From NCBI GenBank assembly GCA_023382265.1, contig JAMCPX010000008.1, forward strand, positions 84,274 through 148,273: 64,000 bases of DNA, in the 5' to 3' direction. Positions within the stretch are counted from its first letter, which is position 1; each line of letters opens with the position of its first letter. This stretch comes from Deltaproteobacteria bacterium. GTDB taxonomy: Bacteria > JAMCPX01. The notes beneath the pieces are model-generated. The model saw nothing but the letters and a program-made list of their open reading frames with translations, did no database searches and was not told where the DNA came from. Shown piece after piece: positions 7,486-62,730 of the stretch. A program made the position numbers and the translations under genes.

Positions 7486-8877
7486 TCACTTTCCAATACA
7501 AAATTCGGAAAAGATCTTATCAAGTATATCTTCCGGCGTAATCTCACCGGTTAGCTCACTAATTGCCATTATAGCACTATCAACCTCTTCTGCTATAATT
7601 TCAGGAAAAGCCTGTTGAGCAAGTAATTCAATTGCATTTCTTAGTGCCAATTCAGTGTGTTCCATTGCTTGTTTATGTCTTTCTCTGCTTATAACAAGAT
7701 TACCCTCTATATCTGATTTTGTCTGATACAAAGAGATAGCACGTTCTAATTCATCCAGCCCCTGCTTTGTCTTTGCTGATATTGTAAATACCTGGTAAGG
7801 GCTGAATAGTGTTCTAATCCTTTTTATTTCTTCTATATCTTTACATACATCTATCTTATTAATAAGCACAATCACCTTCTGCATATCAATTCCTTGTATA
7901 ACTAAAAGCTCTTCTTCTAAGGATACTTTTTTTAAAGGATCTATTACTATTGCATTAATATCTGCCTGTTTTATCAATGTTTTTGTCATCTCAATCCCCA
8001 ACTTTTCAACAAGTTCCTCACTTTTTCTTAACCCGGCTGTATCTATCAATACAATCTTTTTACCCTGATAATTTATTGATTCCTGAATATAATCCCTTGT
8101 AGTGCCTGGATGTTCCGTGACAATCGCCCTACTCTCTCCTAACATAGCATTAAAGATACTGGATTTACCAACATTTGGCTTACCTATAAAAGCGACCTTT
8201 ATTCCTTCTTTTATTATTTTTGCGTGTTCATAACTATTTAATATATAAGCAGTCTCGTCATGAGCTGCCTGTAATATGATGCCTAATTCTAAAACCCCTT
8301 TTGGCTTTACATCTTCTTCTGGAAAATCAATCATTACTTCAAGATGTGATTTTACCTGTAAAAGCTTTTCTTTAATCCCTAGAATATACTCTGATAAAAG
8401 CCCTTTCAGATGACTCATTGCCTGCTGTCTTGAAGCTTCTGTATCAGACTTTATAAGATCCAGTACTGCCTCTGCTTGTAAAAGGTCCATCTTGCCGTTT
8501 AAAAATGCCCTTCTTGTAAATTCACCTTTTTGGGCAGGTCTTGCTCCGGCTTGTATTACCTGTTTTAAAACTGCCTGCATAACGCCGGAACTGCCGTGCG
8601 TATATATTTCAGCCATGTTTTCACCGGTATAGGTCTTCGGGCTTTTCATATATGCAAGCATTACGTTATCTATTGTTTTGCCTGATGTATCATTTATATC
8701 ACCATAATATAGTGAATGACTTTTAAAAGCTTTTACATGTTTTCTGGATTTAAATAAATTTTTTATAATGTGTAATGTAAGTTCCCCACTGATTCTAATT
8801 ATACCGATTGCCCCTTCTCCAGATGGCGTAGCAATGGCTGTAATTGTATCGCTATTAAAAAAGTCTTTTTTTTTCAT
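7486..8877 (-). CDS. mnmE: tRNA modification GTPase MnmE (TrmE)
   Basis: Has a G-domain (GKPNVGKSS), the C-terminal CIGK motif and is about 460 aa long. It is divergent from dnaA. Confidence 0.95.
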   Translation of the reverse strand: MKKKDFFNSDTITAIATPSGEGAIGIIRISGELTLHIIKNLFKSRKHVKAFKSHSLYYGDINDTSGKTIDNVMLAYMKSPKTYTGENMAEIYTHGSSGVMQAVLKQVIQAGARPAQKGEFTRRAFLNGKMDLLQAEAVLDLIKSDTEASRQQAMSHLKGLLSEYILGIKEKLLQVKSHLEVMIDFPEEDVKPKGVLELGIILQAAHDETAYILNSYEHAKIIKEGIKVAFIGKPNVGKSSIFNAMLGESRAIVTEHPGTTRDYIQESINYQGKKIVLIDTAGLRKSEELVEKLGIEMTKTLIKQADINAIVIDPLKKVSLEEELLVIQGIDMQKVIVLINKIDVCKDIEEIKRIRTLFSPYQVFTISAKTKQGLDELERAISLYQTKSDIEGNLVISRERHKQAMEHTELALRNAIELLAQQAFPEIIAEEVDSAIMAISELTGEITPEDILDKIFSEFCIGK

Positions 8878-8967
8878 TAAAAAACAAAGCGGCCTTTCAT
8901 ATTTTTTATAATCTTCATTAATAAAAACTCATAATATTGACAATGTCAATATTTGGATAAAAATTGC

Positions 8968-8995
8968 TTGACAATGCCTATAAGGGGCATAATAT
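8968..8995 (+). promoter_or_regulatory. Sigma70-like promoter candidate upstream of dnaA (TTGACA-N16-TAATAT), second copy of a tandem TTGACAATG repeat
   Basis: A -35 TTGACA sits at 8968-8973 and a -10 TAATAT at 8990-8995. A similar TTGACAATGTCAATAT element lies about 25 nt upstream. Confidence 0.35.
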
Positions 8996-9168
8996 AATTT
9001 ATGTATAATTTATGATTATCTTTATTTTTCAATAAGTTATATGGCTTTCTACAAGTTGTGGTTATGGATAATACTTATACTATATATTGGTTTTAAAAAG
9101 ATGAATTATAAATGTTTAAAAACACATAATACAGCTATATATCTAATTAAAAGATATAGCTTTTTTAG

Positions 9169-9188
9169 TTTTCCACAGGTGTGGAAAA
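9169..9188. promoter_or_regulatory. Palindromic pair of DnaA boxes (TTTTCCACA gg TGTGGAAAA)
   Basis: TTTTCCACA fits the TTWTNCACA DnaA-box consensus, and two inverted copies sit about 85 nt upstream of the dnaA start. This is the expected autoregulatory or origin site. Confidence 0.5.
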
Positions 9189-9269
9189 AGTTGTGTGTAA
9201 CATTTTTTGATTTATTCTTTGATCTCAATAAGTTACAAACTGAATTATATGTTAATGATAGGTGAACGT

Positions 9270-10574
9270 ATGAAAACATGGGAAACTATAAAACAAACGC
9301 TTATAAATTTTTATAATGATTCAAGTGTTGATCCGTGGCTAAACACCTTAAATGTAATAAGTTTTGATAATAATTCTCTTATCATTAGTGTTCCTGATCA
9401 ATTTTCTTATGATTGGATTAAAAACCATTTTTTAAATGATATAATCCGCGTAGTAAGAGATATTAATGGTAATGAAATAGAGGTATCTCTTATTTTAGAG
9501 GATGGAAAGACCGATGAAATAATTAATATTGCACCTATCAAAGATAATAAGTTTATAGACAAAGCAGCAGAGTTACGTGAAAAATATTCCTTGGAAAATT
9601 TTGTAGAAGGTGAATGCAATAAGTTTGCATTTGCTGCTGCACAGGCGGTGGCTAAGGGGCCGGGGCATACATACAATCCTCTGTTTATCTATGGTGGCGT
9701 TGGCCTTGGTAAAACTCATCTTGTGAATGCAATAGGGAATCACATAAAAAAAGAATATAAACTTTATGTTATATATGTATCTGCAGAAGCTTTTGTAAAC
9801 GATCTCGTGCACCACTTAAAAACTAACAAGATGGATAGTTTTAGGGAAACATATAGAAATTGTGATGTACTGCTGATAGATGATATAGAGTTTATATCAA
9901 ATAAAGAAAAAACGCAGGAGGAAATTTTTCATACATTTAATAAGCTCTATGAAGAAAAAAAACAAATCGTATTTACATCAGACAGATTGCCTAAAGAGAT
10001 ACCCGGTATAGAGGAAAGGCTTAGAAGTAGATTTGAAATGGGACTTATCGCCGATATCCAGGCTCCCGATGTTGAAACAAAGGTAGCTATAGTGAAGAAA
10101 AAAGCAGAACAAAATAACATTGATATAGATGATGATATAGCATTCTTTCTTGCTTATAACACATTATCCAACATTCGAGAACTTGAAGGATATTTAACAA
10201 GGCTGTCAGCTTATGCCTACCTTACTAAAACAAAATTAAATATAAACGTAGCCAAAGAGGTACTGGCAAGTGTTATTAAAAAGAAAGATAAATGGGTTAC
10301 GATAGAAGATATACAAAAAGCTATATCTATATATTTTAAGATTAAAGTGTCTGATCTGAATTCCCAAAAGAGGATGAGATATATAGCGTATCCAAGACAA
10401 ATAGCCATGTATTTGGCTAGAACTCTAACAAATGCATCATTTCCTGAGATAGGTACACAATTCGGGAATAAAGACCATTCTACAGTTATTCATTCTGTAA
10501 ATAAAATAGATAACCTGTATAAAACTGATCAAAGTGTTAAAGATGTTATTGAAAAGATCAAAAAAGGACTTTAA
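9270..10574 (+). CDS. dnaA: Chromosomal replication initiator protein DnaA
   Basis: Has the AAA+ domain (GGVGLGKTHL), the sensor motifs and the C-terminal DNA-binding domain (YPRQIAMYLAR...HSTV). The start was moved to ATG 9270 (MKTWETIKQ), which has an upstream GGTGA RBS. The ORF-track start at 9207 is an unlikely N-terminal extension. Confidence 0.95.
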   Translation: MKTWETIKQTLINFYNDSSVDPWLNTLNVISFDNNSLIISVPDQFSYDWIKNHFLNDIIRVVRDINGNEIEVSLILEDGKTDEIINIAPIKDNKFIDKAAELREKYSLENFVEGECNKFAFAAAQAVAKGPGHTYNPLFIYGGVGLGKTHLVNAIGNHIKKEYKLYVIYVSAEAFVNDLVHHLKTNKMDSFRETYRNCDVLLIDDIEFISNKEKTQEEIFHTFNKLYEEKKQIVFTSDRLPKEIPGIEERLRSRFEMGLIADIQAPDVETKVAIVKKKAEQNNIDIDDDIAFFLAYNTLSNIRELEGYLTRLSAYAYLTKTKLNINVAKEVLASVIKKKDKWVTIEDIQKAISIYFKIKVSDLNSQKRMRYIAYPRQIAMYLARTLTNASFPEIGTQFGNKDHSTVIHSVNKIDNLYKTDQSVKDVIEKIKKGL

Positions 10575-10768
10575 TAAAGTTATTTAAAACTTGTTGATAA
10601 GTATATTGTAATTATATATATGTAATTACAAACAGAAGTGTTAACACATTTTAAACTGAATTGTTTTAAAAATTTTTTATAAAAATTAAATAGATAAAAA
10701 ATATGAGTAGATTTTTAACAAACTTACTACTATGATTATTATATATTATCAAATACTAGGAGATAGTT
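10575..10768. other. AT-rich dnaA-dnaN intergenic region, candidate oriC/DNA-unwinding element
   Basis: The region is very AT-rich. It contains TGTTGATAA (reverse complement TTATCAACA, a near DnaA box). Its position between dnaA and dnaN is the most common bacterial oriC location. Confidence 0.4.
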
Positions 10769-11866
10769 ATGGAGTTTAGTATATTAAAAAAAGATTTTGT
10801 TTCCGCAATAAGTAAAGTGATCGGTGCAACAGAAAAAAAAGCAAGTATGCCGATATTATCCAATATTTTAATAAAAATAGAAAAAGATATTCTGACAATT
10901 ATAGGAACAGATCTTGAAGTTACAATTATCACTAAAATTAAGTGTAATAATATAGTTTCAGAAGGAAAAACGGTAGTACCAGCTAAAAAAATATTTGATT
11001 TTGTAAAAGAACTGCCCGAGAGTGAAATTAATATAAAAATAGAAGATGGATTGATAAATATGGTTATAGGAAAGATATCAGGTAAATTAAAAGTTTTACA
11101 AGCAGAGGACTTTCCTATGATAGAAGAGTACAAAGACGGTTTTACAAAAATTGATAACAACACTATTATGAAGACCATAGATAAAACGATATATGCTGCC
11201 TCTACTGATGAGGTTAGATACAGTTTGAACGGTATATTTTTAGAAAAATATATAAATAAATTAAGATTTGTGGCTACGGATAGTCATAGAATGGCTTTGT
11301 GTGATTTAAAAGAAGTAAATAGTATAGAAGGTTTAACAAAAGGGGTTATAATACCAAGAAAAGGCTTATATGAAATGAGAAAAATAAACAGCGATAATGA
11401 CGTTGAAATTGCTATTGATAAAAATAAAAATTTTATAGTAAGAATAGGTGATACTACAATACAGATGAGACTGTTGGATTATGATTTTCCTGATTATAAA
11501 CCTGTTATACCAAAAGAAACAAAGGTTAATATAAAAATAAATAAAAATATTTTAGCATCAGCAATAAAGAGGGCTCAATCTATATATCAGGATAAAATAA
11601 CAAGAATCATATTCAATGTTAATAATAAGACTCTTACCATAGAAAGTAGTGAGTCTGATACGGGTGAGGCAAAAGAAGAAATAGAGATAGACTACAATGG
11701 TGAACCTTTAACAATAGGCTTTAATGGAAGATATGTATTAGACTGCTTAAACACAATAGAAAGTGATTTTATAATAATTGGTTTGAATAATGATCAAAGT
11801 GTTGCAACAATTATACCGGAAGAAGATAAATTACATTATAACCTTATTATGCCTATGAGAATATAG
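10769..11866 (+). CDS. dnaN: DNA polymerase III beta sliding clamp DnaN
   Basis: Is 365 aa long with the N-terminal MEFSILKKDF...PILSNILI motif and three beta-clamp domains. Confidence 0.95.
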   Translation: MEFSILKKDFVSAISKVIGATEKKASMPILSNILIKIEKDILTIIGTDLEVTIITKIKCNNIVSEGKTVVPAKKIFDFVKELPESEINIKIEDGLINMVIGKISGKLKVLQAEDFPMIEEYKDGFTKIDNNTIMKTIDKTIYAASTDEVRYSLNGIFLEKYINKLRFVATDSHRMALCDLKEVNSIEGLTKGVIIPRKGLYEMRKINSDNDVEIAIDKNKNFIVRIGDTTIQMRLLDYDFPDYKPVIPKETKVNIKINKNILASAIKRAQSIYQDKITRIIFNVNNKTLTIESSESDTGEAKEEIEIDYNGEPLTIGFNGRYVLDCLNTIESDFIIIGLNNDQSVATIIPEEDKLHYNLIMPMRI

Positions 11867-13901: not shown

Positions 13902-14300
13902 TCACTTCAGACTTTTGATATAAGCAATAATATCGTCGATCTCTATAGGACTGAGCTTACCTTTAAAAGAAGGCATGACATGTGCGGGAAAACCTTTTAC
14001 ATTATAATCGTCCGGATCAAGGATCTTGTTCTTTATAAATTTATCATCAACAACTATCTTTTCTTCTTTTCCACCTATGTTAACGAATTCTTTTTTACCA
14101 TACAAACCCTTGTAAGATGGTCCCACAAGTGTAGTACCATTGGCAGTATGGCATGCTGTACAACCTTTTTCTTGAACAATCTGTAAACCTTTTGCAGCAC
14201 TACCTTCTGCTACCTTTGCTCCCATAGCCTGAGAAACAACCGAAATTCCTGCTATAATCATTATAGCCATAAGCACTGTAAACTTTATTCTTTTTACCAT
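13902..14300 (-). CDS. Monoheme class I c-type cytochrome (periplasmic)
   Basis: Has a signal peptide, a single CTACH heme motif, the GPSYKGLYG cytochrome-c fold signature and a distal Met (HVMPSF). The start was set at ATG 14300 (MVKRIKF), which is preceded by a GGAGG RBS. Confidence 0.8.
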   Translation of the reverse strand: MVKRIKFTVLMAIMIIAGISVVSQAMGAKVAEGSAAKGLQIVQEKGCTACHTANGTTLVGPSYKGLYGKKEFVNIGGKEEKIVVDDKFIKNKILDPDDYNVKGFPAHVMPSFKGKLSPIEIDDIIAYIKSLK

Positions 14301-14381
14301 ATCATCCTCCTGATAACTAAAATATATGTGCTTCTTAAACCAACAGAGGTACATATAAAATTATTGTTCTTATAATACAAA

Positions 14382-15827
14382 CTAAAACAAATATTCAAGT
14401 TTTATTGCAGTTACATCAAAATCAGACGGTGATATATTTGATGTTGGGACTTGAGCAAGTGCTGCATATTGTGCAACCCCTGGGTTATACTTCATAAAGA
14501 ATGAATGTTCCAACAGTAAATTGACATTCTGGTATGGATACCATGATAGTCCTGCAACAAGAGATTGGACATCCATATCACTTACCTGAGAGGAGCTTGT
14601 TGAAAGATACTTTACATATGCCCCATAAGTTCTCTTGTAATAATAATCTGCCATAACACCCAGGCCGTTCCTGCTCACAGAGGTACCACTGTTCGAAAAA
14701 CTGGTTCCGGAGTACTGATCTACTCCATAAAACTTACTATCATTCTCTGATTGATAAAGTACATAAAGTTCTGCAAGATTGTTGTTGGCAAGATACTGTG
14801 CCTGCAGGTCAACGCCATAGTTCGTATAATTATCAAGATAATTTGGATTTACCAGAGATGAAATAGGCTGAGTCATCCTCTCATTGCCAAAATATCCGAA
14901 TCCGCCGATTTCTACATATACATTATTAAACTCAGGTAAGTAATAAGACACGCGAACACCGGGATCAACAGTGCTTGAGCCATTGAATACCCCGGTTCCA
15001 GCCACTCCTCCCTGAACATATCCGGTCAAGGTTTGATTTTTTGTAGGATGATATGCCCCTACACACGCGTAAAGGCCGCCATCAGTAAAGTCACCCCACA
15101 TACCATATAATTCACCACCTTCTACAAATGCCGTGTTTGTATCAAGTAAGGTATTGTGTGTGCTCATGCCCATAAGTGTAGATGTTAATCCCCACATGCC
15201 AAATGTATTTGAAGGATCTGCCATACCAACCGTATCAACAGCTCTGAATCCATAGCTTAAAGTTTTCCCTGCAAATGTTGTATCTGATCCTACAAATGCA
15301 AGATCAAAGATACCTAAACCAAGGGTTCCGCCTTCATCATTAATACCTGTTAATTCAATTAATGTACCAATATGAGGACCAATCTTTCCTCCTACATATA
15401 TACTGGAGTCAGCAAGCAGGTTAAGAACATCCGTATCTCCATACCCTGAAGGATATGAAACAAAGCCCTGTCCTCCTGTCGCGATACCTCTTGGAACAAT
15501 GCCGTTGTTCCCGCCCTGCTGATTATTCCATCTGGCAACCAGTCTTGCCGACAGCATTGGAACCTTGTTGATTGCAAGTCCAGGCATGGATTTATCATCA
15601 GACTTTATCTGATCTACATAGTCTATCGTATAACCATGAAGTTTAAAATTCCTGCCAAATGGTGTTAGATGAGGGAAAACAGTGTGACACACATCACAGG
15701 CAAGACCTGTTTGTCTTGCAAAACTCGGTACTGCTTTGGCGTTTTTCGGTAAGCCGATCGTCATAACAAAGACCAACCCTGATAACACTATAACCGTTCC
15801 TAATTTACTTAAAACATTCTTTTTCAT
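14382..15827 (-). CDS. Fused monoheme cytochrome c / outer-membrane beta-barrel protein (Cyc2/Cyt572-like candidate)
   Basis: Has a signal peptide, then a single CDVCH motif about 12 aa into the mature protein. The remaining ~430 aa is rich in G/Y/S/T/N with the alternating pattern typical of beta-strands and a C-terminal ...LEYLF aromatic terminus, the outer-membrane beta-barrel signature. Confidence 0.7.
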   Translation of the reverse strand: MKKNVLSKLGTVIVLSGLVFVMTIGLPKNAKAVPSFARQTGLACDVCHTVFPHLTPFGRNFKLHGYTIDYVDQIKSDDKSMPGLAINKVPMLSARLVARWNNQQGGNNGIVPRGIATGGQGFVSYPSGYGDTDVLNLLADSSIYVGGKIGPHIGTLIELTGINDEGGTLGLGIFDLAFVGSDTTFAGKTLSYGFRAVDTVGMADPSNTFGMWGLTSTLMGMSTHNTLLDTNTAFVEGGELYGMWGDFTDGGLYACVGAYHPTKNQTLTGYVQGGVAGTGVFNGSSTVDPGVRVSYYLPEFNNVYVEIGGFGYFGNERMTQPISSLVNPNYLDNYTNYGVDLQAQYLANNNLAELYVLYQSENDSKFYGVDQYSGTSFSNSGTSVSRNGLGVMADYYYKRTYGAYVKYLSTSSSQVSDMDVQSLVAGLSWYPYQNVNLLLEHSFFMKYNPGVAQYAALAQVPTSNISPSDFDVTAIKLEYLF

Positions 15828-16116
15828 TAGCTCCTCCTTCTTAAGTTAAAAGATGACTGTTTTTATATGCTATTCAAAATTTGTGTCAACAATTTGGTTT
15901 ACAATATGCTTCGTATCCGTGGCCGATATACAGGAGAGGTTATTTGTAGAAGAATATATAAAAAACAAAGTAATCAATTATATAATATTCAAATATCTAT
16001 TGCTTAAAAATTCAAACAAGAATAAAAAAACAAAAGATAAAGAAAAACTTGACTTAATAGATTATATATAGACTTTACAATATAATATAAAAACTAATAA
16101 AGGAAGATTTTTTGTT

Positions 16117-16824
16117 ATGAATATTAAAAGGTATATAATTGCAGGATTGTTTACTACACTTATTACAACGACAGTACACGCCGGGCAAAATGCCTGTATT
16201 ACCTGCCACGAGTCTCTTGGTGGAACGATCGCCGCACCTGTTATACACTGGAAGGGCTCTATACACTCGCAAAACGGCGTAACATGTAATTCATGTCACG
16301 GTGGTAATCCTGATGTTAAAACAGGGAATATAAAATTTTTATCACCTGCTGAATTTAGTAATATACAGGCTCATGCAATGTCAAAAGCAAGCGGGTTTAT
16401 TGGTATACCATCAGGCAAAACGATGTTTGATATGTGTGGGAAATGTCATACGGATTCAGTAAATATGTATGCCAACAGTATAATGGGTGTCGCATATTTA
16501 GAAAATAAAGGCGGTCCATCATGCGCAACCTGTCATAATAGCCATGATAATGTTATTCCTGCTGTGCCGAAGGTATGTGAGCAATGCCATAAAGATATAA
16601 CGGGTTTTGATCAGATATCCCCTATGAATGTTTCCGATGCAACAATTCATGACCTTTCTATGCTAAGGATACATATCGAACAAAAGAAGGTGGAGGGTAA
16701 TAAGCTGCCCATATTCAGCAAGGAGCTCGCTTCATTTCAGATCGGATTTGTAGCATGGGGAGCAGTGCTTTTACTGTTGATAGTCTCGTTCATCATCTAT
16801 ATCGTACTCGAGAAGAGGAGTTAA
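16117..16824 (+). CDS. Pentaheme c-type cytochrome with C-terminal membrane anchor
   Basis: Has a signal peptide, five CxxCH motifs (CITCH, CNSCH, CGKCH, CATCH, CEQCH) and a C-terminal hydrophobic helix. It is the first gene of the bc-type complex operon. Confidence 0.85.
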   Translation: MNIKRYIIAGLFTTLITTTVHAGQNACITCHESLGGTIAAPVIHWKGSIHSQNGVTCNSCHGGNPDVKTGNIKFLSPAEFSNIQAHAMSKASGFIGIPSGKTMFDMCGKCHTDSVNMYANSIMGVAYLENKGGPSCATCHNSHDNVIPAVPKVCEQCHKDITGFDQISPMNVSDATIHDLSMLRIHIEQKKVEGNKLPIFSKELASFQIGFVAWGAVLLLLIVSFIIYIVLEKRS

Positions 16825-16825
16825 T

Positions 16826-17089
16826 ATGTCATTTGAGATCATTCACGAAAATAAACCATCATACTCTAAACCGGCAGGTGTTGTAATTGTATTCTTATCC
16901 CTCCTGCTTCTTGTTATGGCTGTTTTTTTTGCTTATCTGTTTATATCGGGCAAGGGTACCGACTATATAATGGGTACTATTCTTGCTTTTGAATTCTTAA
17001 TCTCGGGTATACTGCTGATTCTTTTTGCTAAATATTTTATTTCATTTAGGCACGTGGCAGAAGATCGTAAGGAGGAATTCTTATGGTAG
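16826..17089 (+). CDS. Small two-TM membrane protein (possible accessory subunit of the Rieske/cyt b complex)
   Basis: Is translationally coupled: its ATG 16826 lies directly after the upstream stop, with an AGAGGAG RBS. It is 87 aa with two hydrophobic helices. Confidence 0.5.
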   Translation: MSFEIIHENKPSYSKPAGVVIVFLSLLLLVMAVFFAYLFISGKGTDYIMGTILAFEFLISGILLILFAKYFISFRHVAEDRKEEFLW

Positions 17090-17703
17090 ATAACCATACA
17101 AATGATCCATTTGGCGACGGTAACAAAGGAATAACACGCAGGAAGTTTATTCTTAGTATAATACTTGTAGCAATAGCCGGTGCATTCGGATCCATATTAT
17201 CATTGCTTAAGGTTTTGTCACCTTCAAAAAAAGGTGCCGGATATGTATCAACCATAGTTTCGGGTGATAAGCTTTTATACGCGTCCGGGAATCAAGTTGG
17301 TTCTGTAATAAAAGCTTCTGCCATGGGGGTTGGGGACGCTGTGCTTGCATATCCTATTGGTAAAACATCTAACCCGGCAAACCTTGTGCAGCTGATTAAA
17401 TTAGAGGAAAAAGATTTTCAGCCTCCAACGGATATTAAGTTTACAGACAAGGGGTTTGTCGCGTACAGTGCAATATGTACACATCTTGGATGCACAGTTT
17501 CATGGGTTAACAATAAAAATGCGCCTACGCACTCTTACTCAGAGTGTTTTTGTCATAACAGTATTTTTAATCCGGAAAAGGGTGCAAAGGTTATTGGCGG
17601 TCCTGCACCTGTGCCGCTTGCACAAATAGGCATAAGGGTTGATAGCGATGATTCTTTAGTTTTTACTAGCGGTTTTAATGGTCCAATAGGACCACAGGTA
17701 TAA
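17083..17703 (+). CDS. Rieske [2Fe-2S] iron-sulfur subunit with twin-arginine signal
   Basis: Has an RRKFIL Tat motif plus TM anchor and the Rieske boxes CTHLGC and CFCHNS. An AAGGAGG RBS precedes it, and the start overlaps the upstream stop. Confidence 0.9.
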   Translation: MVDNHTNDPFGDGNKGITRRKFILSIILVAIAGAFGSILSLLKVLSPSKKGAGYVSTIVSGDKLLYASGNQVGSVIKASAMGVGDAVLAYPIGKTSNPANLVQLIKLEEKDFQPPTDIKFTDKGFVAYSAICTHLGCTVSWVNNKNAPTHSYSECFCHNSIFNPEKGAKVIGGPAPVPLAQIGIRVDSDDSLVFTSGFNGPIGPQV

Positions 17704-17724
17704 AAAAATAATGAGGTAACTGAT

Positions 17725-18984
17725 ATGCTTTTTGATTGGTTTGAACAAAGACTGGAACTTAAAAAATTTAAAGAAAAATATTTAACAAAAACTTTTCCAA
17801 CGCATCCTACATTTCTATTGGGAGAGATAGCTCTTTTTTCTTTTATAACCCTGGTTATAACAGGCATATTTCTCGGGTTCCTTTATGAGCCATCAACGAA
17901 GCTTACACCGCTTTTTAGTGCCATGGTTCCGGCAGCATATGCGAGTGTTGTTAAAATAGATCTTATTCCTCTCGGCATGATCATAAGGCGCATACATCAC
18001 TGGTCTGCAATGATTATGATAGCCTCTATTTTAGCACACTTATTAAGGGTTTATTTTACTTCCGCTTATAGGAAACCGCGAGAGATAAACTGGTTTATAG
18101 GACTTGCATTATTTGGTCTTTCGCTCTTTGCTGCATTTACAGGCTATCTCCTGCCATACAGCAATTTCTCTGTAACGGCTACATCTATTGGCTATTATAT
18201 AGCCAAGTCGGTACCATGGATTGGAGGCTGGGTATCAAGATTGGTATTTGCAGGAGAATTCCCTTCTGATGCAACTGTCCCAAGGTTCTTCTTTTTACAC
18301 GTCATGCTTATCCCCATACTTCTTTTAAGCCTTATAGGTTTGCACATGATGATCCTCGTAAAACAAAAGCATACAGAACCTCTTGCAAATAAATCCAAGA
18401 AAGAGGCAGAAAACGGTAAAAGACTTATTGGTATCCCAATCTGGCCTGAGCAAACCATCATCAGTGTATCTTTTTATTTCTTTTTACTGTTTATAATTAT
18501 ACTGATTGCGACCAACATACCTCTTAATCCTATAGAGGCATACGGCCCTCCTTCACCGGGAACGCCGGTTATGAGACCAGATTGGTATTTCTTAATGATC
18601 TATGGATTTTTAAAACTGATTCCGGGAGATTTGTCTTTTAGTATTCTCGGCGGCAAGTTCACACCGGAAACGATCGGCGGTGTACTATTTCCTTCTGTGC
18701 TAATATTGGCCATTATCCTTATTCCTTTTCTTGACAGAGCTAAAGAGCCTGTAAGCTACATAGAAAATCCATTACATAGGCCATTTATGACTTCAATAGG
18801 ACTTACAGGAATTACTTTTACATCAATGCTTGTAGTTGCAGGTTATATCGATGTGCTTCATATAAAGCCAAAAGCTATGCTTATATTGTTAGCAGTTACA
18901 AGTGTTTCAATGTGGGTAATCTCTTATTTCCTTTTAAGGTTTTACAATAATAGAAGAAATAACGGAGGGAACAATGTTAAATAA
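17725..18984 (+). CDS. Cytochrome b (long form, b6 plus subunit-IV-like fusion) of a bc-type complex
   Basis: Carries the RRIHHWSAMIMI...HLLR heme-ligand helix motifs, is 419 aa, and has at least 8 TM helices. Confidence 0.9.
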   Translation: MLFDWFEQRLELKKFKEKYLTKTFPTHPTFLLGEIALFSFITLVITGIFLGFLYEPSTKLTPLFSAMVPAAYASVVKIDLIPLGMIIRRIHHWSAMIMIASILAHLLRVYFTSAYRKPREINWFIGLALFGLSLFAAFTGYLLPYSNFSVTATSIGYYIAKSVPWIGGWVSRLVFAGEFPSDATVPRFFFLHVMLIPILLLSLIGLHMMILVKQKHTEPLANKSKKEAENGKRLIGIPIWPEQTIISVSFYFFLLFIIILIATNIPLNPIEAYGPPSPGTPVMRPDWYFLMIYGFLKLIPGDLSFSILGGKFTPETIGGVLFPSVLILAIILIPFLDRAKEPVSYIENPLHRPFMTSIGLTGITFTSMLVVAGYIDVLHIKPKAMLILLAVTSVSMWVISYFLLRFYNNRRNNGGNNVK

Positions 18985-19753
18985 ACCCAATATAGGTCTA
19001 TTTGTTCTATTAAGTATATGTGTGTCTTTATCAAACGCGGGCTACGCTTCACAGAACAATAATGCTCATGTAAAAAATACATGCGTTATATGCCACTCTA
19101 AAATATCGGGCGAAACCTTTGTAGGAATCAAATCGCACTCATGGGAGAATTCTATTCATCAAGAACACGGTATAACCTGTAATCAATGCCATGGTGGAAA
19201 CCCGAAGGCAATTACAACCGCAAAGGCACATATTGGTGTATTAGGTTCAAGCAATCCGGATAGCGGTGTGTATTATAAGAATATCCCAAAGACATGCGGC
19301 AGATGTCATAATAAAGAACTTTACAAGTATACGGAAAGCAATCATTTTAAAAAGCTTGAAGCAACTGGACAGGGGCCTAATTGTGTAACATGTCATGGTT
19401 CTATGGTAACAACAATATTAACGCCGGACGATATGGCAAACGTATGTGATAAATGTCATAACACAAGGATTGGTGTTTTTCCCTATATCCCCGAGAAGGC
19501 AAAGGCTGTCCTGATGTTGCTTGATACAGAAGGATCCCTTATCGCCGCAGATGAAAAGATATACAGCAGCAGTAAAGAAGATATGCAGATATTGCAAAAA
19601 GCGAAGAGCCAGTTTTCTAATGCGAAACTCGAATGGCATGCATTTGACCTGGATAAAATAACAAAATATCTTCAAAATACAGAAGAAATCCTAAAAGAGT
19701 TAAGCAAGCCTCCGGTACAAACAAGCCCGGTAAGCAAACAGCATAATAAATAA
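18974..19753 (+). CDS. Pentaheme c-type cytochrome
   Basis: Has a signal peptide and five CxxCH motifs (CVICH, CNQCH, CGRCH, CVTCH, CDKCH). Its start overlaps the cyt b stop, and a GGAGGG RBS is present. Confidence 0.85.
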   Translation: MLNKPNIGLFVLLSICVSLSNAGYASQNNNAHVKNTCVICHSKISGETFVGIKSHSWENSIHQEHGITCNQCHGGNPKAITTAKAHIGVLGSSNPDSGVYYKNIPKTCGRCHNKELYKYTESNHFKKLEATGQGPNCVTCHGSMVTTILTPDDMANVCDKCHNTRIGVFPYIPEKAKAVLMLLDTEGSLIAADEKIYSSSKEDMQILQKAKSQFSNAKLEWHAFDLDKITKYLQNTEEILKELSKPPVQTSPVSKQHNK

Positions 19754-19967
19754 TTTATTACGATTTCGGCGATGTTCGTGCATATATGCTTATGATAGAA
19801 TAGTTTACTATCCTGCAGTATAGTTGATTTTGTGTGTAAAACAAAAATTGCAGTTCAATACAGTACCTCAGGGTAATATGTAACGATAGTTTCAAGTATC
19901 ATAGGCTGGGCCCGGTGTTGAAAGAACAAAAAGGTTGCTCTATTGTATATGCGGATTGGCAACCGGG

Positions 19968-19996
19968 TTGACTTATACGCAATGTGCTATCATAAT
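19968..19996 (+). promoter_or_regulatory. Promoter candidate for tRNA-Ser (TTGACT-N17-CATAAT)
   Basis: The -35 lies at 19968-19973 and the -10 at 19991-19996, 7 nt before the tRNA 5' end. Confidence 0.35.
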
Positions 19997-20003
19997 GCAT
20001 TGC

Positions 20004-20093
20004 GGAGAGGTACCGAAGTGGTCATAACGGGCCCGCCTCGAAAGCGGGTATCCTGGGCAACCGGGAACGTGGGTTCGAATCCCACCCTCTCCG
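20004..20093 (+). tRNA. tRNA-Ser (anticodon CGA)
   Basis: A cloverleaf is readable: acceptor GGAGAGG/CCTCTCC, D-arm, anticodon stem CCCGC/GCGGG with loop CUCGAAA (anticodon CGA), a long variable arm (class II), T-arm GTGGG-TTCGAAT-CCCAC and discriminator G. CCA is not encoded. Confidence 0.9.
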
Positions 20094-20237
20094 TTAATGA
20101 GGGATGGCACTGTTTAATCCAAAAAAAGTGCAGCAGGAAAGTTTGCCTTTTAATTTTTCAAATACATTATTCCGGCTGGCTTATTTTTACTTGAATTATC
20201 GGTGTTTTTATTCTATCCTCCTTAAAAGAGGTATTCT

Positions 20238-36946: not shown

Positions 36947-38269
36947 TTGCAAAAGCTGCAAGTAAATTTTATACTGCCGCCGATGGATAGAAAGCTCTTA
37001 AATGAATACGATAAGCCTGCGAAAGAGCATTATTACATACTTTTCTTGAGCTGGGCAGGCTGGGTGTTTGACTTTTATGATCTTACACTCTACACTTTTC
37101 TCCTTATACCAATAGGTAAAGAACTTCACCTGACCAACATGCATCTTTCTTATATACTCGGCATTTCATTAGCTGCTACGGCCATCGGCGGTATACTATT
37201 TGGAGTACTTGCCGATTATTTCGGCAGGCGCAGCGTTTTGCAATGGACTATCATTACTTACAGTATCGGTACATTCTTGAGCGGTCTTGCACCGGATTTT
37301 AATTTCTTGATATTATTTAGAATAATTACCGGTATCGGTGTTGGCGGAGAATGGGCAACGGGTCAAACTTATGTGGGGGAGACGTTCCCGCCTAATGTAA
37401 GGGGCAGATTTGGGGCATTCATGCAGACAGGTGCACCGGTAGGTGTAGCTCTTGCAGCACTTGTTGGAGGGTTCTTATCTCCATTGATAGGCTGGCGTGC
37501 CTCATTTATGATTTCTGTACTCCCCGCCGTGCTTGTTATCATAATAAGAAGAAAGCTGCCCGAATCTGACTTATGGGAAGAACGCAAACGTTTGATAAGT
37601 TTAAATCAAGTATCATCGCAGGTTATAAAAGAGGAGACCGGCAATAACTTTTTAGAGCTGTTTTCCAAAAAATATGTTGGCATGTTTATAAAGGCGCTCC
37701 TGCTCGGCATATTCCTTATGTCTGCTTACTGGTTTACGTACTCATGGTTACCCGGTTACCTTTATGAACAAAGACATTTTTCAATTACGAAATCGGGTTT
37801 GTGGATGATCATTACACAAACAGGCGGTTTTATAGGTTATGGCACTTTTGGCTTTGTAGCCGACAGGCTGGGTAGAAGACCCGCGTTTACAATATACGCA
37901 TTTTTGATGGCAGCAGGACTTGTTATGATAACATTGATGTGGAGTTTTATTGCCAGTTATCCTTACATAATTCTTGTATTCATGTTTATGGTAGGTTTTG
38001 GTACTGGATTTTTTAGCGGCTATGGCCCGCTTATGTCGGAATTATTCCCTACAAAAATCCGGAACACAGCCATGGGAACTGCATTTAATCTTGCGCGGGG
38101 AATCCAGTTCTTCACACCAGTTATAATTGTTATTGTGTCAAGGTATTATGGGCTTGGCGGCGGGATATCTATTGCTGCACTTTTCGCCATACTCGTAGGA
38201 TTATGGGTATGGGTATTCCCGGAGACGAAAGGTAAAAAACTTACAGCGTTAACCCAAAAAATGGAATAG
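36947..38269 (+). CDS. MFS transporter
   Basis: Has 12 predicted TM helices and the MFS signature GRR-like motif (FGVLADYFGRRSV). Confidence 0.85.
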   Translation: MQKLQVNFILPPMDRKLLNEYDKPAKEHYYILFLSWAGWVFDFYDLTLYTFLLIPIGKELHLTNMHLSYILGISLAATAIGGILFGVLADYFGRRSVLQWTIITYSIGTFLSGLAPDFNFLILFRIITGIGVGGEWATGQTYVGETFPPNVRGRFGAFMQTGAPVGVALAALVGGFLSPLIGWRASFMISVLPAVLVIIIRRKLPESDLWEERKRLISLNQVSSQVIKEETGNNFLELFSKKYVGMFIKALLLGIFLMSAYWFTYSWLPGYLYEQRHFSITKSGLWMIITQTGGFIGYGTFGFVADRLGRRPAFTIYAFLMAAGLVMITLMWSFIASYPYIILVFMFMVGFGTGFFSGYGPLMSELFPTKIRNTAMGTAFNLARGIQFFTPVIIVIVSRYYGLGGGISIAALFAILVGLWVWVFPETKGKKLTALTQKME

Positions 38270-38275
38270 GACACA

Positions 38276-39073
38276 ATGTTTACCTTTCTACAAGCCTCTC
38301 CCAATGACGGGTCGTCTGCGGAACAGCACACAATACCTCCACAGGCCATTCATAAGTTCGCGGTCGTAATACCGGTCTATAATCATGAATCCAGGCTCAG
38401 GGCTGTCGTTGAAAGCGCCATGAGCCTCCGCCTGCCGGTCTATGTCATAGATGACGGCTCAACGGACGCAACTCCAGGCATCCTGAAATCCATCCCTGGT
38501 ATAACGGTCATCAGTCATTCTACAAATCTCGGGAAAGGCGCAGCCCTCATGACCGGTTTCACGGAAGCTGCAAGGACGGCGGATTTCGCTATCACGATAG
38601 ACGCAGATGGCCAGCATGACCCGGCAGACGCCGTTCATCTTATGGCCCCTTTGCAATCCGGTATCCATGCGATTGTTATCGGCAGGCGGGAAAACATGCT
38701 GAACGATACGAGAATAAAATGGACCAGCCGCTTTGGAAGAAAATTTTCGAACTTCTGGGTGCGTATGTCCGGAGGGCCCGTGCTGTCGGACACACAGAGC
38801 GGGTTCCGCATATATCCAATCCATGAAATACTGGGCATTAAGTCGGTGTCCAGACGGTTCCAATTTGAGGTGGAAATAGTTGTGCTTGCGCATTGGAAGA
38901 GCATACCGATCGTTGAGGTCCCGGTCAAAGTGCTGTATCCATCAAAACAAGACCGTATATCCCATTTCCGTCCCTTCGTTGATTTCTGGAGGAATGCAGG
39001 GACGTTTACCATGCTGATTGCCATGAGGATCCTTTTGCCGTTGAAGTTGAGGCGGAGGCTGATACAAAAATGA
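38276..39073 (+). CDS. Family 2 glycosyltransferase (polyprenyl-phosphate sugar transferase, DPM1/ArnC-like)
   Basis: The FAVVIPVYNHE...IDDGSTD motif is the GT-A DxD region. A C-terminal amphipathic TM tail is present. This is the first gene of the higher-GC block. Confidence 0.85.
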   Translation: MFTFLQASPNDGSSAEQHTIPPQAIHKFAVVIPVYNHESRLRAVVESAMSLRLPVYVIDDGSTDATPGILKSIPGITVISHSTNLGKGAALMTGFTEAARTADFAITIDADGQHDPADAVHLMAPLQSGIHAIVIGRRENMLNDTRIKWTSRFGRKFSNFWVRMSGGPVLSDTQSGFRIYPIHEILGIKSVSRRFQFEVEIVVLAHWKSIPIVEVPVKVLYPSKQDRISHFRPFVDFWRNAGTFTMLIAMRILLPLKLRRRLIQK

Positions 39074-42000: not shown

Positions 42001-42180
42001 CTGGAGCAGAGCAGGCTCACACTCAGGGGGCAAAAATATTATTTCAGGACCAGCGAAAGTATCGTTCAGATTATCTCAAAGGCCGGTTTCACCCTGACAT
42101 ATTCCGGCGATTCTGCGAAGGGAAGAGAGGAGACCTGGTTCGTCTGCATGACAGTGGAGCACAGCCAAGAGCCGCTATGA
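39070..42180 (+). CDS. MMPL/RND-superfamily exporter (COG4258-like) fused to C-terminal class I SAM-dependent methyltransferase
   Basis: Has two 5-6 TM bundles, each preceded by a large periplasmic loop (the MMPL topology). The C-terminal ~190 aa has MTase motifs I (VMDLGCGYG), II (DAVLMLDIIHYL) and III (LKPGGSVVI). Confidence 0.8.
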   Translation: MNGQSSLIRWKAVVVVILAFTVLYIAGVHGLTIETDITASLPKNDPVIADARYVITHYPVFDRVFIDIGVTKQHTDDGLLMTAATYMQQGLRASGLFKEVGLGTSVDAMPLLLSHIVSNLPSMFSLKELETSVLPLLGSASLRSLMDRNMDILQGLEGMGQSGLIARDPLGLRNIVLARMASLLPVHGATINNNFIMSRDRRHILIIAEPKQSSTDTNFALKINALINKLIAEIDQKAGGAQQQISITPIGSYRAAIDNETIARRDTMRALLLSTIGIALLLLISFPRWYIGLMALVPALAGTSAALFVMSLLRHNLSILAIGFGGAIISINVDYGIAYLLFLDQAQTTSGTYASRQSFWVGLGASLTTVGSFLALSFSGFPILAEIGWFTAMGTLFSFAFVHTIFPLVFRRVSPARHRGIMPMEKITSRLVLSSGWTAFIVAGIFGLVMAFFARPAVKADVEAMNTESAATHIAESNVKKTWGDILSDTTYILIQGSSVKSLQDRADRLDTFIRARMASGVVRSGFSPLSIFPGEALARKNEAAWKAFWTTQRVQSLRGKIAHVSKLVGFSHNAFEPFFEKLMVRRAYDTAIPRQLYGMLGISRGWDNNTWMMISAVRPGPYYNPEIFYKNLSGAGIGKMLDAHWFTVRLSNLLFTMFVRMGILCGVGLVVVLVFYFMDFILVILALVPVAFALVSTFATYHFLHRPLDIPSLLLVVVVFGMGSDYSIYFIGAYQRYFDEHDPAMSPIRTAVFLNAGSTITGLGVLAFAGQAMLKSAGLSMVLGLGYALIGTVTLLPPILRVLYAPRKKGIMPAVAAGSPEHRARVLSSYRYMETYVRMFARFKIKFDPMFSQLADFVGPKDKVMDLGCGYGVPSAWLMHLYPSVYLFGVDPNQDRVRVARRALGDRGTAVHGEAPDFPKPPHACDAVLMLDIIHYLSDEEFAQTLASSSSCLKPGGSVVIRATVPSSKHVPWERWLEQSRLTLRGQKYYFRTSESIVQIISKAGFTLTYSGDSAKGREETWFVCMTVEHSQEPL

Positions 42181-62175: not shown

Positions 62176-62205
62176 CCCGTCCTCCTTTTGACGATATAAA
62201 AAATA

Positions 62206-62730
62206 TCAAAAATAATAATGTATGCCTGCATTTATAGTATCAGCAGAAATGCCAAATGCTGTACCGTATCCATCGAGATATTTTACACCGAGATCGAGCT
62301 CGAGATTAAACCCGAGATTCGGAAGTCCCTGAAAGAAAAATTCTATACCGCCTAAAGCACCAAGGCTGAAACCCGTTTTCATCTCTACTCCTGTAGCTGT
62401 TGAAACCGGTTGATTAAAAACGTATAAACCAGCGCCTGTATACAAGTTCATATTGGCTTCTTCCATTACATTATACAGGAATTTACCTCCGAGCCCAAAC
62501 GATGTCTGGCTGCTGCCGTTGTTTGGTGAAAAATTCAGAAAGGCAAAATCTCCCTGAATCCCCATGTCTTTGTTAAACCAGTACCTTGCAGATGCTGCAT
62601 CAAGATGCTGGTTTATGCCTATCTGCGAATTAAAACCGGCACCAATTCTTTCACTGAGATCCTTTGCCCATAGCTTGGGAACAATACCTACACTCAGCAA
62701 TCCCATTAAAACGAGTACTTTTATCTTCAT
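62206..62730 (-). CDS. Small outer-membrane beta-barrel protein (OmpW/OmpA-like 8-strand barrel)
   Basis: Has a signal peptide (..LWA), alternating hydrophobic beta-strand pattern and a C-terminal ...GIHYYF aromatic terminus. The start was set at ATG 62730, which follows AAGGAG. Confidence 0.7.
   Translation of the reverse strand: MKIKVLVLMGLLSVGIVPKLWAKDLSERIGAGFNSQIGINQHLDAASARYWFNKDMGIQGDFAFLNFSPNNGSSQTSFGLGGKFLYNVMEEANMNLYTGAGLYVFNQPVSTATGVEMKTGFSLGALGGIEFFFQGLPNLGFNLELDLGVKYLDGYGTAFGISADTINAGIHYYF

Follow-up and report, generated by a model that had tools for sequence, protein, structure and literature searches.

A conserved five-gene Rieske/cytochrome b module with two pentahaem cytochromes c adjoins a Cyc2-family gene in a deltaproteobacterial genome

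Results

Gene content and local DNA signals

The window examined here, a 64,000-nucleotide stretch of contig JAMCPX010000008.1 from a deltaproteobacterial assembly, carries five closely spaced genes on its + strand. The first, cytA (16117-16824), encodes a 235-aa pentahaem cytochrome c, presumed to replace cytochrome c1, with a signal peptide, five CxxCH motifs and a C-terminal TM helix. It is followed by a small membrane subunit of 87 aa with two hydrophobic helices (16826-17089), a 206-aa Rieske [2Fe-2S] protein with a Tat signal/anchor (17083-17703; twin-arginine ITRRKF, CTHLGC and CFCH), and a 419-aa cytochrome b with 8 predicted TM helices, in which b6-like N-terminal and subunit-IV-like C-terminal halves are fused (17725-18984). 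The last gene, cytE (18974-19753), encodes a second pentahaem cytochrome c of 259 aa with a signal peptide and five CxxCH motifs, periplasmic and non-anchored. The initial annotation had described these same five + strand reading frames, two distinct pentahaem cytochromes of which one is C-terminally anchored, and a b6/subunit-IV-type fusion; all of this holds at the level of the genes.

From cytA to cytE the junctions measure +1, -7, +21 and -11 nt. The earlier description of all genes as overlapping or abutting by 1 to 11 nt is correct for three of the four junctions and slightly wrong for the Rieske/cytochrome b junction, because that is a 21-nt spacer. A GGAG/AGGAGG Shine-Dalgarno sequence lies 6-9 nt 5' of every one of the five genes, and a scan of the cluster for internal terminators returned none that was convincing, the single weak match falling within the Rieske gene. 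The invariant acidic C-terminus of the small subunit, EDRKEE(F/L)LW, overlaps the Rieske Shine-Dalgarno sequence and start codon.

Upstream of cytA lies an AT-rich divergent intergenic region of 289 bp (15828-16116), which contains promoter-like hexamers (TTGACT ... TACAAT/TATAAT, consensus matches only) and the cytA Shine-Dalgarno sequence. Beyond it, on the - strand, are a gene for a Cyc2-family fused monohaem cytochrome-porin (14382-15827, 481 aa) and, directly downstream of cyc2, one for a class I monohaem cytochrome c with the haem motif CTACH (13902-14354). The public-record gene call for the latter is 132 aa long and corresponds by coordinate conversion to window positions 13902-14300.

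A bc-type core

Identification of the core as bc-type draws on Pfam and NCBIfam matches together with invariant functional residues. Cytochrome b matches Pfam Cytochrom_B_N_2 (1.4e-50), Cytochrome_B and Cytochrom_B_C. The b-haem ligand pairs H91/H105 and H192/H207, the histidines of helices B and D in bc-type proteins, are invariant in 51 orthologues, as is the Qo motif PDWY at residues 285-288 (R284-P-D286-W287-Y288), which conforms to the bc-type pattern P[E/D]WY. The D variant of this pattern is associated with menaquinol oxidisers, and this motif, taken with the host lineages, suggests that the quinone is menaquinone. The nearest solved cytochrome b is the actinobacterial QcrB (7q21_B, 1.3e-57), followed by b6 at ~5e-31. 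Inspection of the N-terminal segment (PTFLLGEIAL) reveals no Cys for haem ci; with one fused gene of 419 aa and no cytochrome f, the module departs from b6f and Firmicute bc complexes, which have split b6 and subunit IV, a haem-ci Cys and either cytochrome f or a subunit IV-cytochrome c fusion; the sole b6f-type trait of its cytochrome b is a 14-residue His spacing on helix D.

The Rieske protein (Pfam Rieske, 7.4e-7) contains the boxes C132-T-H-L-G-C137 and C155-F-C-H158, followed by S160 and F162. Residues C132/H134/C137, C155/C157/H158 and the twin arginines R19/R20 are invariant in 52 orthologues. Its nearest solved relative is that of Thermus thermophilus (1nyk/3fou, E 1e-19), and its match to the anammox (Kuenenia) proteins 9rk3/9rk4 is weak (~5e-7). 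The small subunit, a probable distant member of DUF7318, scores 25.2 bits against this family, where the Pfam gathering cut-off is 27, and 22 of its 26 orthologues match it at E <= 0.01 (best 7e-8). We take DUF7318 to be an archaeal family. A search of the small subunit against the PDB gave no match.

The two pentahaem cytochromes

The single C-terminal hydrophobic helix of cytA spans residues 203-235 and is conserved among homologues. All five CxxCH motifs are invariant in 49 homologues together with H50, H143, M88, M123 and M170, and the cluster has no monohaem c1 subunit of the canonical bc1 kind. An AF2 model of cytA (pLDDT 82) has no significant match among PDB folds, and relatives of both pentahaem proteins sought among solved structures gave none. 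Judged from its alignment, cytE is a paralogue of cytA (28% identity, E 7e-19, all five CxxCH aligned). Its invariant residues are H55, H62, H86, H124, M144 and H222, and its C-terminal ~90 aa are helical and haem-free.

All ten haem motifs are CxxCH, with neither CxxCK nor a cross-linking Tyr context in either protein. Because the invariant extra His and Met residues (five in cytA, six in cytE) equal or exceed the number of haems, no coordination site appears to be left open. With ligands assigned by conservation, all haems look six-coordinate, as in electron carriers rather than catalytic centres. This bears on the idea that the pentahaem proteins are nitrite, hydroxylamine or sulfite reductases fed by the Rieske/cytochrome b core; every NCBIfam score is, moreover, far under its cut-off, and we consider such a role very improbable.

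Conservation of the module

The same five genes recur in the same order in ~50 of 54 species-level MAG loci, under at least four phylum labels (Nitrospirota, Desulfobacterota/Syntrophobacteraceae, Acidobacteriota, Gemmatimonadota). Five CxxCH motifs are present in 48 of 48 second cytochromes and 48 of 51 first cytochromes, the remaining three cytA frames being short (97-167 aa) and apparently truncated at contig ends. This repetition of order and counts in independent loci disposes of chance as a cause and of the concern that the CxxCH count was wrong through sequencing error. The 7-nt small-subunit/Rieske overlap is kept in 48 of 52 loci. Given this order and the invariant haem motifs, b-haem histidines and PDWY, the five genes are a single conserved module, and it is self-contained, since the flanking genes vary in nearly every locus. 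Nor is it rare, as had been supposed: the cytochrome b clade comprises hundreds of 90%-identity clusters from metagenomes and 54 GTDB species genomes. The module is common in uncultured anaerobes, whose lifestyle is suggested by lineage.

That the five products form one complex, as the initial annotation proposed, is very probable from synteny: gene order is conserved across at least four phylum labels, the 7-nt overlap is near-invariant, cytA has a c1-like anchor and the cluster has no internal terminator. The opposing view, that the multihaem cytochromes are mere neighbours acting as independent periplasmic carriers apart from the Rieske/cytochrome b core, could draw on two loci (L011 and L049) in which cytE is absent although the sequence runs on past cytochrome b, and on the fact that the complex is deduced from synteny. 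Yet cytA is the first gene in every locus, cytE is present in 48 of ~50, the order stays fixed while the flanks change, and overlapping genes and the cytA anchor bind the cluster together; we hold this view to be unlikely. Given the two loci that lack it, cytE may be a loosely attached partner rather than a true subunit.

The Cyc2 neighbour

Cyc2 proteins have been defined by a signal peptide, a single CxxCH, the motif AxPxFAR[Q/K][T/Y] upstream of it, PxL 4 residues downstream and a length of >= 365 aa (PMC8406198). The neighbouring product has all of these features; its motif AVPSFARQT-GLA-CDVCH-TVF-PHL fits AxPxFAR[Q/K][T/Y]...CxxCH...PxL. Its AF2 model (pLDDT 79, pTM 0.79) shows a barrel of ~16 strands with a C-terminal Phe, and the best Foldseek matches are OmpT/OmpF-type general porins (E ~1e-8), which are 16-stranded. 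A homologue 48% identical to it bears the JGI name iron:rusticyanin reductase. On these features the neighbour belongs to the Cyc2 family of cytochrome-porins, whose Fe(II) oxidase activity is known from other members. Fe(II) oxidation is the activity of every Cyc2 characterised so far (PMC8406198, PMC13647500), one of them from an uncultured Thermodesulfovibrionia and expressed in E. coli (PMC13647500).

Across 55 loci, cyc2 occurs within 6 kb of the module in nine, in three arrangements, and in five of these nine it is co-directional and directly upstream of cytA. Three further loci (two or three contigs) have it at 6-7 kb, and 46 of the 55 have no cyc2 within 6 kb. In a Desulfurella locus, cyc2 occurs together with a cytochrome b that is 47% identical. 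The Hydrogenobaculum, Desulfurella and Syntrophobacteraceae loci likewise have a monohaem cytochrome c beside cyc2. Since a Cyc2-family gene adjoins the module here and cyc2 flanks it in nine loci, the present genome probably connects it to extracellular iron, and the context, with its divergent cyc2 and monohaem cytochrome c, supports the extracellular electron transfer suggested earlier. The 46 loci without a nearby cyc2 indicate that the connection to iron may be confined to certain lineages.

Discussion

The module combines a known Rieske/cytochrome b quinol-oxidising core with a variant trait, recognised here from the genes: two pentahaem cytochromes replace monohaem c1. The nearest named relatives are <= 44% identical. 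In the menaquinol-oxidising bc complex of Thermus thermophilus (FbcCXFB), which has the closest solved Rieske relative, the cytochrome c gene reportedly comes first (Mooser et al. 2005/2006), followed by those for a small membrane protein with no assigned role, the Rieske protein and cytochrome b. The module has this gene order and probably also the menaquinol chemistry; by its position the 87-aa protein would correspond to FbcX, and the Thermus-like four-gene form is exactly that of L011 and L049. The Thermus c subunit, however, is monohaem, whereas that of the module is a C-terminally anchored pentahaem accompanied by a second pentahaem gene, and the solved chain closest to the module cytochrome b is an actinobacterial QcrB.

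The actinobacterial bcc complex (QcrCAB) uses menaquinol and has a dihaem c subunit. It shares the fused 8-helix cytochrome b (NCBIfam bc1_QcrB_actin, 2.8e-89), and an actinobacterial model is the best NCBIfam match for the module Rieske. Scores nevertheless stay below the family cut-offs (QcrB 300 bits versus 500, QcrA 90 versus 275), a dihaem QcrC is missing, and the module Rieske has one N-terminal helix where the actinobacterial protein has three. Geobacter Cbc/ExtP-type complexes also place a b6-like cytochrome b beside multihaem c, used there for extracellular electron transfer, and NCBIfam ExtP matches the N-terminal half of the module cytochrome b (2.6e-48; 165 bits, below the 290-bit cut-off). 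Cbc complexes are not known to include a Rieske protein or a subunit-IV half and would hence lack a bifurcated Qo site, which makes them a poor comparison although the initial annotation proposed it.

Acidithiobacillus ferrooxidans has a ubiquinone-dependent bc1 complex. It likewise joins Cyc2, a small periplasmic cytochrome c and Rieske/cytochrome b in one iron-quinone route (PMC10654088), but with a canonical monohaem-c1 bc1, a rusticyanin hub and separate rus and pet operons, whereas the module has apparently anaerobic hosts (judged by lineage), pentahaem proteins as carriers and, with PDWY, a Qo site of the menaquinol type. The anammox complexes R/b-2 and R/b-3 (Kuenenia kuste4569-74, kustd1480-85) resemble the module in that multihaem c subunits take the place of c1 beside the Rieske/cytochrome b core (PMC12954380). 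They differ in having an NAD(P)-oxidoreductase subunit and Rieske proteins of high potential. By description only, the module can be likened to Methanoperedens MPEBLZ_00816-00823, a Rieske/cytochrome b core with two pentahaems and two small hypothetical proteins, and we count the DUF7318 match of the small subunit towards this likeness. That cluster belongs to an archaeon and has eight genes, one of them for an additional cytochrome c. This non-canonical cluster is transcribed, with its genes co-expressed, and its proposed role as a menaquinol:cytochrome c oxidoreductase that supplies electrons for nitrate or metal reduction (PMC4683180; PMC7327174) provides a precedent.

We modestly favour the reading that the module encodes an inner-membrane menaquinol:multihaem-cytochrome c oxidoreductase working by a Q cycle, forward by default and iron-linked in this genome. 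Menaquinol would be oxidised at the PDWY-type Qo site of the 8-helix dihaem cytochrome b, with the first electron passing to the Tat-exported Rieske cluster and the second crossing the membrane via haems bL and bH in a proton-motive Q cycle. The Rieske head would deliver its electron to cytA, the anchored pentahaem standing in for cytochrome c1, and cytA to its soluble paralogue cytE, such that a ten-haem wire would extend into the periplasm. The DUF7318-like 87-aa two-helix protein would be a structural membrane subunit. Periplasmic partners probably differ from genome to genome; the likeliest in the present one are the monohaem cytochrome c together with Cyc2 in the outer membrane. The forward, quinol-oxidising, energy-conserving run would be the default, and the proton-motive force could reverse the same wiring.

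Such reversal as the normal mode is a tentative, less probable alternative. Cyc2 would oxidise Fe(II) and pass electrons through the monohaem cytochrome c, cytE, cytA and the Rieske protein to menaquinone in a pmf-driven reverse Q cycle, and the resulting quinol would supply reductases that depend on it or the synthesis of NAD(P)H. Under anaerobic conditions and with menaquinone, this would mirror the uphill branch Cyc2-CycA1-PetABC of Acidithiobacillus. The nine loci with cyc2 adjacent to or co-directional with the module speak for it, and multihaem carriers of low potential, standing where c1 has a high one, would narrow the uphill gap to menaquinone. MAG names of the same accession series (FK, DBS, DX) presumably point to iron-rich mine-drainage sediments, which we also count in its favour. 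The energetic demand is an objection: menaquinone has a potential of ~-75 mV, and lifting an electron to it from a cytochrome at ~+200 mV takes ~280 mV, more than the pmf provides at one charge per electron. In addition, most module loci lack cyc2, and no terminal oxidase or nitrate reductase lies near the module in the window. The Cyc2 of PV-1 has a potential of 208 mV (PMC8406198). Because every characterised Cyc2 oxidises Fe(II) (PMC13647500; PMC8406198), electron uptake is favoured over the forward direction on this count, and for acidophiles the accepted view has bc1 running backwards after Cyc2 (PMC10654088).

The initial annotation also raised bifurcation and a comparison with anammox clusters. 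In such a scheme the two electrons of quinol would part, one reaching the multihaem cytochromes and the second going via the b haems to NAD(P)+. Sister genomes (loci L057-L059) lend this some colour, as an NAD(P)-linked anammox-type Rieske/cytochrome b operon lies immediately beside the module there; it encodes a GltD-like FAD/NAD(P)/FeS protein, ends in cyc2, and has a Rieske whose best PDB match is to Kuenenia Rieske proteins (9rk4 at 9e-22). That operon is, however, a separate complex, its cytochrome b being only 30% identical to that of the module, and it is absent from the present window. At none of 54 loci does the five-gene cluster include a subunit for NAD(P), FAD or FeS, and the module Rieske is far nearer to Thermus than to anammox proteins. 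The module is not of the anammox type, and bifurcation is highly unlikely.

Returning to the menaquinol-oxidising, iron-linked complex, if its partners are right, the module would connect the cell's menaquinone with extracellular iron.

Organization of the five-gene module

The five genes lie on the forward strand, and their coordinates match exactly the co-directional open reading frames drawn in the initial annotation. The first, cytA (16117-16824), encodes a 235-residue cytochrome c that combines a signal peptide and five CxxCH motifs with one hydrophobic helix at its C-terminus. It is followed by an 87-residue small subunit with two hydrophobic helices (16826-17089), a Rieske protein (17083-17703) with the twin-arginine sequence ITRRKF and the boxes CTHLGC and CFCH, a 419-residue cytochrome b (17725-18984) whose Pfam domains are b6-like towards the N-terminus and subunit-IV-like towards the C-terminus and for which eight helices are predicted, and cytE (18974-19753), a 259-residue protein that carries a signal peptide and five CxxCH motifs without an anchor. 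In gene order, the junctions measure +1, -7, +21 and -11 nt. The description of all genes as abutting or overlapping thus holds for every junction but one, the Rieske and cytochrome b genes being separated by a 21-nt spacer. A GGAG/AGGAGG Shine-Dalgarno sequence lies 5' of each of the five start codons.

The divergent spacer upstream of cytA is AT-rich, spans 289 bp and contains promoter-like hexamers; a promoter scan gave no more matches than background (25 found versus 27 expected). Downstream of cytE, approximately 250 nt of non-coding DNA precede a forward-strand tRNA-Ser(CGA) gene (20003-20094, 250 nt 3' of cytE), and a terminator scan found no convincing intrinsic terminator after cytE. 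An open reading frame listed at 19943-20194 does no more than overlap the tRNA gene. Inspection of the small-subunit C-terminus, EDRKEEFLW (17060-17089), reveals that its coding bases also supply the Shine-Dalgarno sequence of the Rieske gene (AAGGAGG) and the overlap of start and stop codons (ATGG-TAG), such that the conservation of this peptide may in part reflect a translational rather than a protein constraint.

At a larger scale, the window belongs to contig JAJYST010000005.1 of the metagenome-assembled genome GCA_021793435.1, which NCBI labels 'Deltaproteobacteria bacterium'. In the regions 9207-11866 and 8000-10000, dnaA and dnaN adjoin a minimum of cumulative GC skew, which puts roughly 5 kb between the respiratory cluster and the probable origin of replication. 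A segment at 38000-42200 stands out by its G+C fraction of 0.50-0.51; most of the window lies at 0.36-0.41, and two other stretches at 0.44-0.46. The segment, whose products include a family 2 glycosyltransferase and a 1036-residue MMPL-like/methyltransferase fusion protein, may have been acquired horizontally.

The module is conserved as a unit across phylum labels

A homologue scan using one genome per GTDB species recovered 54 loci, all in metagenome-assembled genomes (MAGs), with a cytochrome b 62-80% identical to that of the window. By NCBI label, these comprise 19 from Nitrospirota/Thermodesulfovibrionales, 18 from Deltaproteobacteria/Syntrophobacteraceae, 14 labelled as unclassified 'bacterium' and one each from Acidobacteriota, Gemmatimonadota and Pseudomonadota; the MAGs derive from sediment, subsurface, vent and soil habitats, and the module is conserved at 70-80% identity across phylum labels. 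By tblastn, all five genes occur in the same order in about 50 of the 54 loci, the exceptions being contig ends and two homologous loci, L011 and L049. These two hold the four-gene core only and truly lack cytE, though sequence runs on past cytochrome b, and cytE is therefore dispensable in some lineages. Five CxxCH motifs are present in every cytE orthologue (48/48) and in 48 of 51 cytA orthologues, where the other three reading frames are short (97-167 residues) and look truncated. The 7-nt overlap of the small-subunit and Rieske genes is retained in 48 of 52 loci, and the genes flanking the module differ in almost every locus.

With its order fixed, its genes translationally coupled and its context free-floating, the cluster has the look of a self-contained multi-subunit module. 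The earlier proposal of a single complex is accordingly strengthened by the gene order, the overlaps and the varying flanks, features of the sequence from which one assembly would be predicted. The description of such complexes as rare did not survive, given the 54 GTDB-species loci and a word-indexed search that scored 1977 relatives among 8000 candidates, in which each of the best 120 clusters shares 70% identity or more. When the library is clustered at 50% identity, a single representative stands for essentially the whole cytochrome b clade, and no further relative exceeds 44% identity; the few that are named belong to Thermomicrobiales and Nocardioides, and the rest are almost exclusively anonymous metagenome proteins. 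Public annotation labels the parts of the module only as 'cytochrome c3 family protein' or 'hypothetical'.

Local variations were seen among the homologous loci. In one (L014:1829-8827), 3,059 bp that run from cytA through the small-subunit and Rieske genes to cytochrome b are present twice in direct orientation and at 100% identity, owing either to an error of assembly or to a tandem duplication of very recent date. In another (L015:8152-11048; also L019 and L031), a membrane-anchored pentahaem cytochrome (171 residues) and a molybdopterin-oxidoreductase-family protein (729 residues) are encoded directly 3' of the module and may represent an alternative-complex-III-like or Qrc-like second quinol module.

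Subunit anatomy and nearest relatives

Inspection of the cytochrome b alignment reveals invariant H91/H105 and H192/H207 pairs, with b6-type 14-residue spacing on helix D, and an invariant PDWY Qo motif; the protein has no cysteine for haem ci. The Rieske protein retains both cluster boxes, including the disulfide cysteines, as well as the RR motif, all invariant. Among solved structures, the best match of the cytochrome b is actinobacterial QcrB (1.3e-57), its nearest relative in sequence although it falls below the curated cut-offs, followed by b6 (~5e-31) and then bc1. The Rieske protein is closest to that of Thermus thermophilus (1e-19), and two Kuenenia anammox Rieske proteins match at ~5e-7.

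The two pentahaem cytochromes align at 28% identity (E 7e-19) with all five haem motifs in register and are paralogues. Conserved residues comprise H50, H143, M88, M123 and M170 in cytA and H55, H62, H86, H124, M144 and H222 in cytE. With these as distal ligands, every haem could be six-coordinate, which points to haems that would carry electrons rather than perform catalysis, and a catalytic pentahaem was rejected on the same grounds. The anchored cytA is predicted to have more His/Met, and hence higher-potential, sites. The small subunit appears to be a distant member of DUF7318, the Pfam family matched by 22 of 26 orthologues (best E 7e-8), and its C-terminus, EDRKEE(F/L)LW, is invariant. 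Sequence searches of the PDB with both pentahaem cytochromes and the small subunit returned no useful relative.

A Cyc2-type neighbour and a probable link to iron

Divergent from cytA, on the reverse strand at 13902-15827, are genes for a 481-residue Cyc2-family fused cytochrome-porin and, following it, a class I monohaem cytochrome c. The larger protein is annotated by NCBI as hypothetical and has no Pfam or NCBIfam match. It has every sequence feature in the published definition of Cyc2 (PMC8406198), including a signal peptide, a single CxxCH, AVPSFARQT upstream of the haem motif (fitting AxPxFAR[Q/K][T/Y]), PHL four residues downstream (fitting PxL) and a length above 365 residues. An AF2 model (pLDDT 79) presents a barrel of approximately 16 strands that matches OmpF/OmpT-type porins, and a homologue 48% identical is named iron:rusticyanin reductase by JGI.

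A cyc2 gene with the full motif flanks the module in nine of 55 loci and is the sole recurrent neighbour across all loci. Relative to the module it is divergent, convergent or, in L037, L040 and L046-48, co-directional and immediately 5' of cytA. Between the window's Cyc2 and the Cyc2 proteins of the Syntrophobacteraceae loci, identity is only 26-33%, such that the association with the module has probably arisen, or been kept, more than once. The link to extracellular electron transfer made in the initial annotation is therefore backed by context, both in the adjacent cyc2 and in its recurrence. A Desulfurella MAG, of a genus with cultured members, encodes cyc2, a monohaem cytochrome c, a two-component system, ResB/CcsA cytochrome c biogenesis genes, and a DOMON protein, Rieske protein and cytochrome b (L061:8001-17398); its Rieske protein and PDWY-containing cytochrome b are 36% and 47% identical to those of the window, and the cluster is a sister form of the module with the DOMON protein in place of the pentahaem. 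In Hydrogenobaculum, cyc2 has only its monohaem partner.

Elsewhere in the window, a 399-residue decahaem lipoprotein cytochrome (60976-62769, reverse strand; 10 CxxCH, lipobox LIAGC) is encoded, its gene preceded by one for a 187-residue beta-barrel-like outer-membrane protein ending in YYF. This region may be a second extracellular-electron-transfer element of the same genome.

Sister genomes carry a separate anammox-type operon

The closest relatives of the window's Cyc2 (L057/L058, L059, and also L001, L009 and L032) are encoded in a longer divergent operon that runs from a monohaem cytochrome c through a 652-residue GltD-like FAD/NAD(P)/FeS protein, a second Rieske protein, a second cytochrome b, a membrane tetrahaem cytochrome c and DoxX to Cyc2. 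In L057 (4364-11428), it is divergent from cytA and its cytochrome b has 438 residues. The best PDB matches of the second Rieske protein are Kuenenia Rieske proteins (9rk4, 9e-22; 9rk3, 1e-18), and an anammox-type Rieske/cytochrome b complex therefore exists in the neighbourhood of the sister genomes. Its cytochrome b is only 30% identical to that of the module, and the two are different complexes, the sister one presumably NAD(P)-linked. An anammox-type complex co-operonic with an iron-oxidase-type porin-cytochrome, outside anammox bacteria, may be more novel than the five-gene module itself. The window lacks this operon and contains only five c-type cytochrome genes. Bifurcation, as invoked earlier, thus does not apply to the five-gene cluster: the anammox-type complex is a separate operon, absent from the window, and was rejected as the identity of the cluster given Rieske matches of ~5e-7 to Kuenenia versus 1e-19 to Thermus.

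Proposed mechanism and direction of electron flow

Geobacter Cbc, b6f and canonical bc1 were each rejected as identities of the module. The Thermus FbcCXFB complex is closest in Rieske sequence and also in gene order. In architecture, the nearest described precedent, compared by description only, is the 'non-canonical Rieske/cytb' cluster of Methanoperedens. Two of its genes encode pentahaem cytochromes and two encode hypothetical proteins; the cluster is transcribed as one unit and has been read as a menaquinol:cytochrome c oxidoreductase (PMC4683180; PMC7327174). Earlier work already proposed multihaem acceptors for Rieske proteins in anaerobes (Dibrova 2013, cited in PMC5317091). Full-text literature searches found no description of the five-gene cluster. 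The kind of complex is therefore already known, and within the literature searched the five-gene form, its breadth and its cyc2 linkage appear undescribed.

The core is assigned by its sequences to the Rieske/cytochrome b complexes, and around it we infer a physical assembly, its quinone type, haem ligation and direction. The anchored pentahaem cytA would fill the c1 position, with cytE carrying the wire further out into the periplasm. Most economically, the whole is read as a menaquinol:multihaem-cytochrome c oxidoreductase with a proton-motive Q cycle. We lean slightly towards this explanation as a whole, with forward operation, from menaquinol to iron or other acceptors, as the default direction. 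The main rival has the complex run in reverse, from Fe(II) to menaquinone, in keeping with the matching activity of every tested Cyc2. A Cyc2 from uncultured Thermodesulfovibrionia oxidises Fe(II) in E. coli, in a report that mentions no bc-type complex (PMC13647500), and the route from Cyc2 through cytochrome c to a bc1 running in reverse is well established in acidophilic iron oxidisers (PMC10654088). Forward operation is preferred because it fits the thermodynamics of a menaquinol enzyme and the anaerobic host lineages, and because most loci are without cyc2 and a decahaem lipoprotein is encoded elsewhere in the window; reverse operation is rated unlikely, though far from negligible.

More speculative still is a proposal that joins the module, the monohaem cytochrome c and Cyc2 into an iron:menaquinone oxidoreductase spanning the cell envelope. 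For strict anaerobes that rely on menaquinone (Thermodesulfovibrionia, Syntrophobacteraceae and allies), the assembly would supply what Cyc2-dependent iron metabolism has lacked until now, a point of entry or exit at the inner membrane, and its low-potential multihaem wire would be an evolutionary match to the menaquinone pool. Sister genomes would pair it with the anammox-type NAD(P)-reducing Rieske/cytochrome b complex, for which the same Cyc2 would act as high-potential port.

In most respiratory chains, energy conversion centres on Rieske/cytochrome b complexes, and to our knowledge those of anaerobes with low-potential quinones have hardly been studied. The module is of interest as a widespread, uncharacterised candidate for the inner-membrane partner of Cyc2 in anaerobes, and a purified example would reveal the docking of a Rieske head on a multihaem acceptor, the potentials at which a Q cycle can work from menaquinol, and whether such a complex may run in reverse. 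Its recurrent linkage to cyc2 offers a testable route by which electrons from Fe(II) may enter, or drain to Fe(III) from, the quinone pool of anaerobes.
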